Shown: piece by piece, positions 40,238-44,064 of the stretch
Layout of the letters: each line of letters starts with the position of its first letter
Position numbering within the stretch: the stretch's first letter is position 1
Assembly: GCA_041664345.1 (NCBI GenBank)
Contig: JBAYKX010000019.1
Span: 13,033 to 77,032 of the forward strand
DNA length: 64,000 nt
Direction of reading: 5' to 3'
From: Salinivirgaceae bacterium
GTDB taxonomy: Bacteria > Bacteroidota > Bacteroidia > Bacteroidales > SZUA-534
Position numbers and translations under genes: made by a program
Notes under the pieces: generated by a model
Seen by the model: the letters and a program-made list of their open reading frames with translations, nothing else
The model's database searches: none
Told to the model about the DNA's origin: nothing

Positions 40238-41437
40238 ATGCCAAAAATTAAATACATTGCCGTATTGATTTTTCTGTTGTATTCAAAATTAATTTTGGCA
40301 CAGTCAACCATTGAATTTTCCGGAATTAGCTGGAATGTGAGAAGTGGTGTTGGCGGGCCTGGCCCCAATAATTGGTCCGATAATCCTAAAAATGTTTGGG
40401 TGGACTCTTTGGGCCGGTTACACTTAAAAATAACAAAGGAAGGAAATACTTGGTATTGTTCCGAAATTTACACCCAACAATCTATTGGCTATGGCAAATA
40501 CCTGTTTTATTTAGCTGAAAATCCACTTGATTACGATCCGAATATTGTGGTTGGCTTATTTACTTACGAATCGGATACCAAAGAAATAGATATTGAGTTT
40601 TCGCAGTGGGCCGATACTAATAGTTTGAATGGTTGGTACACGGTGCAACCACCGCCTTACAACAATAGCAATCAAAATAGTTTTTCAGCAAACCTAAAAA
40701 AGGGCAACACTACCCATAAATTTAATTGGAGTGCCGATAGTATTCATTTTCAAAGTTATAGTGGTAATTACCGGTTGTTGCCATCCCCTGATTCGTTAAT
40801 AAATGAGTGGACTTATTCAGGAAACAGCAATCCACCTGCCGGAAACGAAAGACTACATATTAATTTTTGGCTTTTTAAAGGCAATATGCCACAAAATCAG
40901 CTAGATGCTGAATTAGTGGTTAACGCAGTATTTGTACCTTCAGGTTCATTGTCAATTTCTATTTTGCCCCTTGAAGTTATTAATAAGGGTGCAAAGTGGA
41001 ATGTAGATAATGGTCCATGGCTTAAGAGCGACTCAATATTGGCTTCAGTTACCGATGGTTATCATACAATAAGATTTAATGATGTATCAGGATGGAGCAC
41101 TCCTTTAAGCCGAAATATAAAAGTTGATGACAAGATAGAATTTCACGAAACTGTAAATTATAGCATTATTAATACGATAACTTCAAAACCAGAAATTCCA
41201 AAACTTGATATATTTCCTATTCCTGTTGATGACTTTTTACATTTAGTAGAGCTTGTACCAAGTAATGGAATAAAGAATATTACTGTTTGCAATTCAATGG
41301 GGCAAATTATTTTGAGCACTAAAATTAATAATTCAAAAGCCGAAATAAACGTGTCGAGCTTTAAGGAAGGACTGTATTATTTGGATATATTGTTAATTGA
41401 CAATACGGTGGTAAAAAAATGTTTCATTAAAAGGTAA
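40238..41437 (+). CDS. GH16-like (concanavalin-fold) glycoside hydrolase with T9SS CTD
   Basis: It has the EIDIEFS motif (ExDxxE pattern of GH16) and a C-terminal CTD-like tail (DIFPIPVDDFLHL...GLYYLDILLIDNTVVKKCFIKR). Confidence 0.6.
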   Translation: MPKIKYIAVLIFLLYSKLILAQSTIEFSGISWNVRSGVGGPGPNNWSDNPKNVWVDSLGRLHLKITKEGNTWYCSEIYTQQSIGYGKYLFYLAENPLDYDPNIVVGLFTYESDTKEIDIEFSQWADTNSLNGWYTVQPPPYNNSNQNSFSANLKKGNTTHKFNWSADSIHFQSYSGNYRLLPSPDSLINEWTYSGNSNPPAGNERLHINFWLFKGNMPQNQLDAELVVNAVFVPSGSLSISILPLEVINKGAKWNVDNGPWLKSDSILASVTDGYHTIRFNDVSGWSTPLSRNIKVDDKIEFHETVNYSIINTITSKPEIPKLDIFPIPVDDFLHLVELVPSNGIKNITVCNSMGQIILSTKINNSKAEINVSSFKEGLYYLDILLIDNTVVKKCFIKR

Positions 41438-41644
41438 TGTTGTTTACTGGTTTTCCTAGGACTCTGTTTCAGTCAGCAATGTAGGCAACAAACAACATAA
41501 AAAAATACGTTCAATTGGAAACTTGGGTTTTCAAGGAATTTATTTTTAATGTTAAAGAGATAACTCATTGGATTATTAAAATATTCCATTACTTTTGGCC
41601 AAAACCAAATGCTTTCCAAATAGTAACATAAAAATATAAATCGG

Positions 41645-42574
41645 ATGAATAAGATAGTTATTGGACTTGCAATTTGCACAGTTGCAATTAGTTGTACAAC
41701 ACAGCAGAAAGTGGTTAAGGTTGAACCACAAATTCAAGAAATAAAACTGGAAGTACAATCGCTTAAACGGAAAGTTGCTATTGCGCGTTTTTCAAATGAA
41801 ACACAATACGCAAAGGGTGTGTTTTACGACAAAGATAATGACCCGATTGGTAAACAGGCGGTTGATATTTTATCTACAAAACTTGCATCAACTAATAAGT
41901 TTATATTGTTGGAACGGCAGGGTATGGATAAAATTATAGAGGAGTTAAATCTTGCTGGGAATGAAGGTTTACAAAAAGTTGGTGCTGACTATTTAATAAT
42001 TGGTTCTGTTACGGAATTCGGAAGAAAGAATGTAGGTGACGTGAATGCTTTTTCAAGAAGTAAAACTCAGACAGTACAAGCAGGAGTGAGCATTCGTTTG
42101 GTAGATGTTTCGACTGGACAGATAATTTATTCAGAAGAAGCTAAGGGTGAAGCCGAAACTACCAATAAAACAGTGATGGGATTAGGAGAACAAGCCGATT
42201 ATGACGCTACACTTAGTGATAAAGCAATTTCAGCAGCAATATCAAAACTGGTTGAAAATATTATCAATAACTGCATGGATAGACCTTGGAAATCATATTT
42301 TCTCTCGTATGATGAAAATGGAATTATAATTTCAGGAGGTAAAAGTCAGGGCTTGAAGGTTGGTGATACCTATGATGTTATTGAAAGAGGTAAAAGTATT
42401 AAAAATCCCCAAACTGGTATGATGATTGACTTACCTGGTAAATCAGTTGGGAAAATTAAAATTGACTTTGTAGGGGGTGATAATCCCCAAAGTGAATTCT
42501 CGATGATTTCATTTACAGAAGGCAATATCGACCCCCAAAATTTAAGTAACTATCATATTAAAGAGATTAAATAA
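41645..42574 (+). CDS. CsgG/HfaB-family lipoprotein
   Basis: It has a lipobox (AISC). The region VAIARFSNET...GKQAVDILSTKLASTNKFILLERQGMDKIIEE...ADYLIIGSVTEF is typical of the CsgG fold family. Confidence 0.7.
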   Translation: MNKIVIGLAICTVAISCTTQQKVVKVEPQIQEIKLEVQSLKRKVAIARFSNETQYAKGVFYDKDNDPIGKQAVDILSTKLASTNKFILLERQGMDKIIEELNLAGNEGLQKVGADYLIIGSVTEFGRKNVGDVNAFSRSKTQTVQAGVSIRLVDVSTGQIIYSEEAKGEAETTNKTVMGLGEQADYDATLSDKAISAAISKLVENIINNCMDRPWKSYFLSYDENGIIISGGKSQGLKVGDTYDVIERGKSIKNPQTGMMIDLPGKSVGKIKIDFVGGDNPQSEFSMISFTEGNIDPQNLSNYHIKEIK

Positions 42575-42906
42575 TGAAAAAAATACTTTTTGTTATGGCA
42601 ATAGGTTTGATAATTCTTACAAATTGCACAGGTGTAAAAACGGTAACTACGGGTTTAGAAAATGAATCTTTCTTGGAATTTATTGGAAAATCCAATATTT
42701 ATAAGGATGGAGTTGATATAACCATTGATGATAAAACCACTTTTAAGGCCGAGGTAAATAAAGACCATACTGACCGCCCCAAAGGCAAAATTTATGCAAT
42801 ATCGACAGGAACGCATGTAGTTACTGTTACTTATAATAATAATGTGATTTTTAAAAAACAAATATTTATTTCAGCACAAGAAACCAAAAAAATAATTTTA
42901 CCATGA
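42574..42906 (+). CDS. Small hypothetical lipoprotein
   Basis: It has a lipobox (LTNC). TAATG overlaps with the upstream gene and ATGA with the downstream gene. Confidence 0.55.
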   Translation: MKKILFVMAIGLIILTNCTGVKTVTTGLENESFLEFIGKSNIYKDGVDITIDDKTTFKAEVNKDHTDRPKGKIYAISTGTHVVTVTYNNNVIFKKQIFISAQETKKIILP

Positions 42907-43247
42907 AAAAAATAGTTTTTATTTCAATTTCCGTTTTGTTATTGGTATCATGCAGCCCCCAAATGAATTTGTATTCATGGGACAAGTATGAAACCACAAG
43001 CTATAATTATTTGAAAAACAACGATGAAAAGTCCACTCAAGAATTGATAGAAACATATCAAAAAATAATTGAAAAACAAAGAGGAACAAGAGGTGTGGTT
43101 CCACCGGGGATTTATGCTGATTATGGGTTTATATTGCTTCAAGCAAATAAAACATCAGAAGGCAAAGAATTACTTTTAAAAGAGGTTGCATTGTATCCCG
43201 AATCAAAAATATTTATTGACAGAATTTTAAAAATGATTGAAAAATGA
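42903..43247 (+). CDS. DUF4810-like lipoprotein
   Basis: It has a lipobox (LVSC). LYSWDKYE...PPGIYADYGFILLQ...ALYPES follows the DUF4810 pattern. Confidence 0.55.
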   Translation: MKKIVFISISVLLLVSCSPQMNLYSWDKYETTSYNYLKNNDEKSTQELIETYQKIIEKQRGTRGVVPPGIYADYGFILLQANKTSEGKELLLKEVALYPESKIFIDRILKMIEK

Positions 43248-43939
43248 AAAAAATACTATTTTATATTGTTGTTGGAAGCGCTTTTTTATCAAGTTGCACT
43301 ACCACAACACCAATTACAAAATCGGTAGCCTATAAAGGAATGTACGCTGAAAAACCATTGACCATTTTGTTGATGCCACCAATAAATAAAAGTACGAATG
43401 TTGAGGCAAAAGAATATTTTCACTCTACCCTTAGCATACCAGTTGCGAACTCAGGTTTTTATGTTATTCCTACCTTTCTTTCAATGGAAATATTAAAAAA
43501 AGAAAGTGCGTATGATGCAGAGTTATTTTTGAATTCCCCATTATCTAAATTTGGTGAAGTATTTGGTGCAGATCTGGCATTATTTACTATAATACATAAG
43601 TGGGACAAATCAGGAATTGCTGCTAAAGTTTATGTTGATGTAGAATATATCATCAAATCGGTTAAAACCAACGATATTATTTACACAAGGAGGGGTGATG
43701 TTACCTACGATGCATCTATTTCAACTGGTGCAGGAGGCTTAGCTGGATTAGTTGCCAATATTGCCTTGTCAGCAATTAATACATCGTTAACAAAATATGT
43801 TGATGTAGCAAGAGCTTGTAATGCATATACATTTAAAGATTTGCCAACAGGCAAATATAGCCCAAAACATAATATTGATGGCGAAGAGTTATCTGGAAAG
43901 AAGTATTTTAAAGCAATGCTGAATAAAAATTACAGATAA
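43244..43939 (+). CDS. DUF799 / GNA1162-like lipoprotein
   Basis: It has a lipobox (LSSC). LTILLMPPINKSTNVEAKEYF...GFYVIP...FGADLALFTIIHKWD follows the GNA1162 family pattern. Confidence 0.6.
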   Translation: MKKILFYIVVGSAFLSSCTTTTPITKSVAYKGMYAEKPLTILLMPPINKSTNVEAKEYFHSTLSIPVANSGFYVIPTFLSMEILKKESAYDAELFLNSPLSKFGEVFGADLALFTIIHKWDKSGIAAKVYVDVEYIIKSVKTNDIIYTRRGDVTYDASISTGAGGLAGLVANIALSAINTSLTKYVDVARACNAYTFKDLPTGKYSPKHNIDGEELSGKKYFKAMLNKNYR

Positions 43940-43970: not shown

Positions 43971-44064
43971 TTCATTAAAGGGTTCAGCGGTTTTCGGAAA
44001 TTTCCTTCTGAACAAATAATGTGACAGGAGAGAGCCGAACGAACTAAATTTACCCTTTAATGAA
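43971..44064. repeat. Nested palindromic element between convergent genes
   Basis: It has a perfect 13-bp inverted repeat, ttcattaaagggt (43971..43983) / accctttaatgaa (44052..44064). This encloses the inner hairpin gttcag...ctgaac and the 10-nt palindrome ggaaatttcc. Confidence 0.7.

Follow-up and report, generated by a model that had tools for sequence, protein, structure and literature searches.

Known three-gene clusters and the four-gene operon

Several Proteobacteria carry a cluster of three genes encoding, in this order, a CsgG-like protein, a DUF4810 protein, and a GNA1162-like (DUF799) protein. Such trios are found in Acinetobacter baumannii (D1G37_12595-12605), in Neisseria (the GNA1162 cluster), and in Ralstonia, Comamonas, and Aeromonas. 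All their members are predicted lipoproteins, and they stand alone, without a linked cargo gene. Here, we have analyzed a stretch of 64,000 nucleotides (nt) from a Salinivirgaceae bacterium (contig JBAYKX010000019.1 of assembly GCA_041664345.1, positions 13,033 to 77,032; hereafter, the window), which encodes an operon of four genes at positions 41645-43939 of the + strand. This operon has the same three Pfam families in the same order, is also made of predicted lipoproteins, and also lacks a linked cargo gene. However, it adds a small gene (gene 2) between the CsgG-like gene (gene 1) and the DUF4810 gene (gene 3), the last place being taken by the GNA1162-like gene (gene 4). The product of gene 1 also has an extra beta domain of ~95 amino acids (aa), being 309 aa long whereas its proteobacterial counterparts have 221-230 aa. 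We conclude that the operon is a four-gene variant, specific to the Bacteroidota, of a trio that is known but has hardly been studied. The Bacteroidota form is set apart by the unannotated gene 2, by the extra domain of gene 1, and by the frequent loss of gene 1 lipidation.

The experimental work that we found in the literature concerns the three-gene form only, and our search revealed no paper naming DUF4810 and none on the four-gene form. The cluster of A. baumannii UPAB1 is repressed by a plasmid H-NS, and mutants deleted for the CsgG homologue or for the lipoprotein gene next to it show reduced poly-N-acetylglucosamine (PNAG), Congo-red binding, chaperone-usher pathway pili, and biofilm (bioRxiv 10.1101/2021.05.19.444899). 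The authors of that study regard it as a widespread cluster that had not been investigated, and propose that it encodes a PNAG-anchoring complex. An earlier note on the window, made from the sequence alone, had described the trio as a recurrent but functionally uncharacterised gene set. Genes annotated as NMB1162 and NMB1164 lipoprotein precursors are up-regulated in biofilms of Haemophilus parasuis and Actinobacillus pleuropneumoniae (PMC4245831). Finally, the outer-membrane vesicles of meningococci contain the lipoproteins NMB1125/1163 and NMB1126/1164 (PMC10097807), products of the locus in which GNA1162 (NMB1162) is encoded as well. Their presence in these vesicles is consistent with an outer-membrane location.

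Conservation of the four genes as a unit

The open reading frames (ORFs) of the window place gene 1 (309 aa) at 41645-42574, gene 2 (110 aa) at 42574-42906, gene 3 (114 aa) at 42903-43247, and gene 4 (231 aa) at 43244-43939, all consecutive and on the + strand. The translations confirm that all four products have an N-terminal signal peptide that ends with a Cys, and direct reading of the junctions confirms the overlaps given in the earlier note: TAATG between genes 1 and 2 (1 nt), ATGA between genes 2 and 3 (4 nt), and ATGA between genes 3 and 4 (4 nt). Across the window, 4 of the 37 co-directional adjacent ORF pairs overlap, and three of these four are the junctions of the operon. The arrangement of the four genes is beyond chance and the operon is real.

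We then used a DUF4810 alignment to survey GTDB, with a single genome for each species, which gave 420 confirmed relatives; the best 80 loci were kept and annotated with hidden Markov models (HMMs) of the four genes. All 68 non-redundant loci of the Bacteroidota type have the four genes in identical order, amid unrelated flanks. These loci span the Marinilabiliales/Prolixibacteraceae, Bacteroidales, Flavobacteriales, Chitinophagaceae, and Cytophagaceae. Overlaps of 1 or 4 nt recur in 53/66, 57/68, and 55/65 of them at the junctions 1/2, 2/3, and 3/4, respectively. Hence, the genes are co-conserved as one unit with conserved overlaps. The earlier note had taken the overlaps to imply both co-translation and stoichiometry: the conserved coupling supports the former, but stoichiometry is not established by overlaps alone.

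Outside the Bacteroidota type, the pattern differs in gene 2. We identified 18 loci in Treponema (within L055-L092, e.g., L068, L070, and L079), and 16 of them lack this gene, including those of the isolates T. pectinovorum and T. zioleckii; it is present in the other two, T. parvum among them. In the 16 loci, 3-109 nt separate gene 1 from gene 3. Ralstonia, Comamonas, Neisseria gonorrhoeae, and Aeromonas caviae, the four proteobacterial loci inspected, all have the three-gene form, with a gene 1 of 221-230 aa and without gene 2. The Aeromonas trio has 4-nt overlaps at both junctions, whereas in Ralstonia and Comamonas, as in the Treponema loci without gene 2, there is no overlap between genes 1 and 3. 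Gene 2 is fixed in the Bacteroidota-type loci and absent from most Treponema and from the proteobacterial trios, which therefore makes the operon a lineage-specific four-gene variant. The suspicion of the earlier note that the 110-aa gene lies outside the classical trio was thus correct.

The Treponema gene 1 is ~60% identical to that of the window and also has the C-terminal domain. Because of this similarity, the sequences suggest a transfer of the module between phyla, either once with subsequent loss of gene 2 or in several separate events. The proteobacterial genes 3 and 4 are more distant, with only ~27-31% identity in Ralstonia and Comamonas.

Comparing the flanks of about 85 loci revealed no cargo or partner gene that is conserved, and no flanking gene family that recurs in more than 5 of them, those 5 being all Treponema. 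In the window, the ten neighbors scanned against Pfam include no curli genes, and a search of all frames revealed no CsgA-like repeat motif. The absence of csgA/B/E/F and of a linked substrate gene, claimed from the window alone in the earlier note, therefore holds in the neighbor scan, in the motif search, and in the comparison of flanks. The module is autonomous and has no linked cargo gene.

Some of the surveyed records call for caution. The DUF4810 gene of N. gonorrhoeae (L093, 3054-3344) is perhaps a pseudogene with a frameshift, as it is a 96-aa ORF whose C-terminal part is off the family consensus; the record itself is a 2.17-Mb replicon entered as "plasmid" in PLSDB. Two contigs with the module (L054 and L074) are labelled as metagenome-assembled genomes (MAGs) of Bifidobacterium/Bifidobacteriaceae and are almost certainly mis-binned Bacteroidota.

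Gene 1 combines a CsgG-like and a FlgT_C-like domain

The earlier note had placed genes 1, 3, and 4 in the families CsgG, DUF4810, and DUF799. The Pfam search bears out the three assignments, all of them well above the curated cut-offs. Residues 38-215 of gene 1 (41756-42289, + strand) match Pfam CsgG (PF03783), which covers the broad CsgG/HfaB family, with an E value of 2.5e-28 and 99.3 bits, for a cut-off of 20.8. Gene 1 is also the most conserved of the four genes, with a median identity to the window of 78% across the Bacteroidota-type loci. Yet the models of narrower function fail: gene 1 scores 16 bits against the NCBIfam CsgG equivalog NF011731, which requires 505, and 18.4 bits against the LpoB equivalog TIGR02722, which requires 110.55. 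It also matches Pfam LpoB (25.9 bits for a cut-off of 22.3), but beneath the far stronger CsgG match, and TolB_N is near threshold. Some relatives carry the automatic names "curli secretion channel CsgG" or "penicillin-binding protein activator LpoB," and the tests we ran do not support these names.

We predicted the structure of gene 1 with AlphaFold (AF2), from an alignment broadened with a Bacteroides-type orthologue. The monomer model has moderate confidence (mean predicted local distance difference test [pLDDT] of 67.8). In a Foldseek search, its best full-length matches are a chain of the flagellar LPHT ring of Vibrio (8z5n_0, 1.3e-14) and the FlgT structure 3w1e (2.1e-13, 284 columns). 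From its length, we presume that chain 0 of 8z5n is FlgT. CsgG comes next (4uv2 and 4uv3, 3e-10 to 1e-8, ~205 columns), and HpaA, CT253, GNA1162, PelC, LpoB, TolB-N, and LptE rank lower. Gene 1 is thus predicted to be a two-domain protein, in which an alpha/beta domain of the CsgG/TolB-N type is followed by a beta-rich domain like FlgT_C or TsaP (residues 216-309; 42290-42571, + strand). Sub-threshold sequence hints point in the same direction, with E=0.055 for Pfam FlgT_C (14.4 bits for a cut-off of 27) and E=0.016 for TsaP (3jc8), while FlgT_N and FlgT_M gave no significant match. An alignment with the trio proteins of Ralstonia and Comamonas shows that these end ahead of the C-terminal domain.

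How close is gene 1 to the described proteins with this fold? FlgT of the Vibrio H-ring (3w1e; LPHT ring 8z5n) has the same succession of a TolB-N/CsgG-like middle and a small beta domain, and ~280 of the 309 residues of gene 1 can be aligned with it. However, the sequence similarity is not significant, there are no flagellar genes nearby, and the N-terminal domain of FlgT has no counterpart, since all that precedes the alpha/beta domain of gene 1 is a signal peptide and a disordered tether of ~25 aa, modelled with low confidence. Bacteroidota are not known to be flagellated. The likeness to FlgT is thus a resemblance in fold and not a family membership. PelC (5t11 and 9h80) shares the fold as well. 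It is an alpha/beta lipoprotein forming a dodecameric ring at the periplasmic face of the outer membrane for the export of the Pel polysaccharide, the kind of arrangement that we propose below, but the match is weaker (4e-6 to 1e-5), and PelC is encoded beside the porin PelB in the pel operon, whereas no such partner is found here. LpoB, the activator of the penicillin-binding protein (PBP) PBP1b, is likewise a lipoprotein with a TolB-N-like domain carried by a flexible tether. Its fold match is weak (2.5e-5), and it is encoded by a single gene rather than by a four-gene module. A recent study describes LptE-, PelC-, CsgG-, and PqiC-like outer-membrane lipoproteins as having a common alpha/beta core and different assemblies (PMC13631591; 2026, J Biol Chem). 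We conclude that gene 1 is an orthologue neither of the curli channel, nor of FlgT, nor of LpoB.

The hairpins and the loop of gene 1

CsgG (4uv3 and 4uv2) deserves a closer comparison, since gene 1 has the same Pfam family and alpha/beta fold, a lipobox in the window, and, where CsgG has its constriction, a loop that is just as long. The earlier note had proposed an outer-membrane channel. In gene 1, the hairpins at the positions of the transmembrane hairpins of CsgG are residues 126-145 and 166-190. Compared with the E. coli CsgG sequence, whose agreement with the PDB alignment was verified for residues 42-176 only, they are shorter (20 and 25 aa versus 25 and 32) and have one aromatic residue each, versus 3 and 5. 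Their mean hydropathy is below that of CsgG, they are more polar, and they have no continuous lipid-facing side. Across 83 orthologues, the conserved positions are K128, D132, R138, K140, Q142, E169, E171, K175, D185, and D187, on both faces of the hairpins, and hydrophobic residues are kept only at the tips (135-136 and 177-180). This pattern is not that of a lipid-facing strand, and the hairpins lack the length and the hydrophobicity that the 36-strand barrel of CsgG calls for.

The constriction gives a mixed picture. No segment of gene 1 is more conserved than the loop aligned without gaps to the constriction loop of CsgG (residues 55-72; mean column entropy of 0.48). However, the residues that form the constriction are not conserved: in the HMMER alignment, Y51, N55, and F56 of CsgG correspond to V, K, and D. 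We also considered Y61 and N65 of gene 1 as the match of Y51 and N55 and rejected them, as the alignment pairs the latter with V59 and K63. Thus, the CsgG family and fold stand, but the failed equivalog, the short polar hairpins, the missing lipobox in half of the orthologues (see below), and the better fold match to FlgT do not fit the proposed channel. Gene 1 resembles a periplasmic scaffold that forms a ring more than a membrane pore of the curli type. A channel is possible, but less likely than a scaffold.

Gene 2 belongs to an unannotated family of small lipoproteins

Gene 2 has no family match in Pfam or NCBIfam. We found 204 close relatives, nearly all of 110 aa and unnamed, and the 120 that were listed are 60-82% identical; the nearest named relative is from Draconibacterium orientale. 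A profile search in 1.84 billion cluster representatives revealed 328 clusters (50% identity) at E<=0.001, and among the 150 listed almost all are of ~110 aa. The 28 members that were inspected are all lipoproteins and share a C-terminal motif, F-x-S-x-Q-E-T-K-x-I-x-L-P. Gene 2 is the fastest-evolving of the four, with a median identity to the window of 58%, versus 78% for gene 1, 66.5% for gene 3, and 64.5% for gene 4. Still, in every context inspected, and even for relatives with ~30% identity, a CsgG-family gene precedes gene 2, and a DUF4810 gene and then a GNA1162-like gene come after it, while the flanks vary.

The AlphaFold model of gene 2 (pLDDT of 82) shows a beta-sandwich of seven strands, preceded by a short tether. 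Its Foldseek matches in the PDB are generic and non-significant (best E of 0.026), and include transthyretin-like regulatory domains, CBM41, the C-terminal domain of ushers, and the N-terminal extension of SusC. We conclude that gene 2 represents a real, unannotated family of ~110-aa beta-sandwich lipoproteins.

Two origins were considered for gene 2 and rejected. It could be a detached domain of gene 1, but the likeness found by hhalign is confined to the signal peptide. It could also be a counterpart of the N-terminal domain of FlgT, but there is no FlgT among the 50 fold matches listed. Some relatives were automatically named "sugar lactone lactonase YvrE," "YxeA," or "LpoB," names that none of our tests supports. 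In one Chitinophagaceae MAG (L048, 3146-3504), gene 2 is split into two ORFs, either by a frameshift error or because it is a pseudogene.

Genes 3 and 4

The product of gene 3 matches DUF4810 (PF16068; 7.1e-26, 91 bits for a cut-off of 34.7) and is helical, with one tetratricopeptide repeat (TPR)-like repeat at about residues 73-102. Its family profile matches consensus TPR proteins in the PDB (2wqh, 3.7e-5) and weakly resembles the TPR parts of CpoB/YbgF and of the pilotin PilF. The product of gene 4 matches the GNA1162-like/DUF799 family (PF05643; 4.4e-20, 72.5 bits for a cut-off of 25.9) and, by sequence, the solved structure of GNA1162 over residues 31-183 (PDB 4hrv, E of 9.7e-8). The profiles of genes 1 and 4 align with each other in hhalign (probability of 94%, E of 1.3e-7), the two HMMs also cross-match, and gene 4 lacks the first hairpin of gene 1. 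The profile comparison thus shows that gene 4 is a hairpin-less paralogue of the alpha/beta domain of gene 1.

Lipidation and orientation

The signal peptides of the four products are short, basic, and hydrophobic. The N-terminal sequences are MNKIVIGLAICTVAISC followed by TTQQ in gene 1 (lipobox AISC, with Cys17 at nt 41693-41695), MKKILFVMAIGLIILTNC followed by TGVK in gene 2 (LTNC), MKKIVFISISVLLLVSC followed by SPQM in gene 3 (LVSC), and MKKILFYIVVGSAFLSSC followed by TTTT in gene 4 (LSSC). Gene 2 has an Asn at position -1, which is unusual in a lipobox. In most orthologues, G or S is found there, but several have TNC, ANC, or VNC.

The conservation of the lipobox differs between the genes. 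In genes 2, 3, and 4, a Cys ends the signal peptide nearly everywhere, and gene 4 of locus L007 is the sole exception among the flagged sequences. In gene 1, the lipobox is missing in 33 of the 65 Bacteroidota-type orthologues (L007, L011, L013, L021, L039-L049, and others), which have instead a signal peptidase I site between an Ala and a Gln; a Gln after the cleavage is the Q-rule pattern of Bacteroidota. These versions of gene 1 are therefore predicted to be soluble periplasmic proteins, and the tethering of gene 1 to the membrane would be dispensable. As read from the sequences, the loss of the anchor fits better a subunit held by lipidated partners than a pore that depends on its anchor. 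In CsgG, the lipid anchor is reportedly required to reach the outer membrane and to insert into it.

In Bacteroidota, an acidic stretch in the mature N terminus marks the lipoproteins that are exported to the cell surface. None of the mature N termini read from the window (C-TTQQ, C-TGVK, C-SPQM, and C-TTTT) has such a stretch, so that the four proteins probably face the periplasm.

A proposed periplasm-facing complex and its alternatives

We suggest, with a probability of roughly 45%, that the four products form a periplasm-facing outer-membrane lipoprotein complex supporting the export or the anchoring of surface polymers encoded elsewhere, and not a curli-type amyloid channel. The products of this self-contained operon would assemble as a multi-subunit complex on the periplasmic face of the outer membrane. 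The alpha/beta fold of CsgG, PelC, PqiC-like proteins, and FlgT builds rings under the outer membrane. Gene 1, with its CsgG/TolB-N-fold domain and its FlgT_C-like domain, could be the core, which would probably form such a ring. Gene 4 may provide a second alpha/beta subunit, gene 3 a small TPR-like adaptor, and gene 2 a beta-sandwich subunit added in the lineage of the Bacteroidota. The lipid anchors of genes 2-4 would hold the complex at the membrane, making that of gene 1 unneeded in half of the species. By analogy with the three-gene version of Proteobacteria, the complex may act as an envelope scaffold or as an accessory of a portal for the export or anchoring of exopolysaccharides or pili. 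Several points weigh against this proposal. The assembly rests on monomer models, the one of gene 1 being of only moderate confidence. The AF2 model also draws long paired strands (116-134, 137-154, and 159-177) at the positions of the transmembrane hairpins of CsgG, and the constriction-like loop is the best-conserved part of gene 1, so that a pore is possible. The proteobacterial analogues are distant in genes 3 and 4 and lack both gene 2 and the C-terminal domain of gene 1. Finally, the phenotype in Acinetobacter is pleiotropic and could be an indirect envelope defect.

The strongest competitor, which we regard as unlikely, is that gene 1 is a true CsgG-type oligomeric channel spanning the outer membrane, with genes 2-4 as periplasmic accessories analogous to CsgE and CsgF and a cargo encoded elsewhere. 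The high score in Pfam, the Foldseek matches to both the pre-pore and the membrane-bound forms of CsgG, the paired strands and the loop just mentioned, and the conserved hydrophobic tips of the hairpins all speak for such a channel. Yet these hairpins fall short of those of CsgG by 5 and 7 residues, are poor in aromatics, and are lined on both faces by conserved K, D, N, R, Q, and E; the residues of the constriction are replaced; a signal peptidase I site replaces the lipobox in half of the Bacteroidota orthologues; the equivalog is missed by a wide gap; FlgT is the best full-length match; and no cargo gene is linked in about 85 loci. It is more improbable still that the module regulates the cell wall or the integrity of the envelope, as an LpoB-like activator of peptidoglycan synthases or a Tol-Pal-like tether, whose domains of the TolB-N/LpoB fold would contact periplasmic enzymes. 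The weak matches of gene 1 to LpoB and TolB_N, the LpoB name that NCBI's pipeline gave to some orthologues, the disordered N-terminal tether shared with LpoB, and the slight likeness of gene 3 to the TPR domain of CpoB/YbgF are what such a regulator would have in its favor. However, the LpoB match lies beneath that of the structurally related CsgG family, TIGR02722 fails, LpoB ranks far below FlgT and CsgG in the fold search, no PBP or Tol-Pal gene is linked (ten neighbors; about 85 loci), and the phenotype in Acinetobacter concerns matrix and pili (bioRxiv 10.1101/2021.05.19.444899). That four unrelated small lipoprotein genes are adjacent by chance is practically excluded, and indeed refuted, by the constancy of their order in 68 loci with different flanks, by the conserved overlaps, and by the co-linearity of three of them across phyla.

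Returning to the periplasm-facing complex, a broader version of it seems doubtful to us. The quartet and its parent trio could constitute an undescribed outer-membrane machine, in which a ring of the CsgG/FlgT fold lies under the membrane and is held there by dedicated lipoproteins. In Bacteroidota, Spirochaetota, and Proteobacteria, it would serve surface polymers in general as a portal or as an anchoring platform, and gene 2 would adapt it to the envelope of the Bacteroidota. The CsgG-like/DUF4810/DUF799 cluster is among the more widespread sets of envelope lipoproteins of Gram-negative bacteria without an assigned mechanism; at least 420 species-representative genomes have a close DUF4810 relative. 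Its members in Neisseria are abundant antigens of vaccine vesicles, and the cluster of Acinetobacter influences the matrix polysaccharide, the pili, and the biofilm. Our analysis adds new constraints: a fixed four-gene form in Bacteroidota that includes an unannotated beta-sandwich lipoprotein, an FlgT-like architecture of the core, and a lipid anchor of the core that is evolutionarily dispensable. These constraints argue against annotating such proteins plainly as curli channels, and define the subunits to co-express for structural work. The results are useful for annotation and for the design of such work. They do not open a long-standing question on their own, and a specialist of envelope biology will not find them surprising.

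Surroundings of the operon

The operon is separated from its neighbors by 207 nt on the 5' side of gene 1 and by 209 nt between gene 4 and a convergent methyltransferase gene. The ten neighbors scanned with Pfam are functionally unrelated and include a histidine kinase, a thioredoxin-like protein, a secreted protein sorted by the type IX secretion system (T9SS), the methyltransferase, and redox enzymes, among others. The secreted protein (399 aa, 40238-41437) is the upstream neighbor and has a C-terminal type IX sorting domain (Por_Secre_tail, 9e-10), which marks the host as a T9SS-bearing member of the Bacteroidota; its association with the operon is not kept in other genomes. We found no second copy of any of the four genes within the window, and scans of the window for tRNAs and Rfam families gave nothing.

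Two sequence elements flank the four genes. On the 5' side, direct reading reveals a candidate -7 promoter box, TACTTTTG (41590-41597, + strand; 48 nt 5' of the first ATG), which fits TAnnTTTG, the -7 motif of Bacteroidota promoters. On the 3' side, the gap before the methyltransferase gene has a long predicted RNA hairpin (43971-44064), which is present in a single copy in the window, does not match Rfam, and has no U-tract. It consists of a perfect outer stem of 13 bp, TTCATTAAAGGGT / ACCCTTTAATGAA, and of inner stems, with a folding energy of -42.4 kcal/mol (z = -3.98). This hairpin may be a bidirectional terminator.

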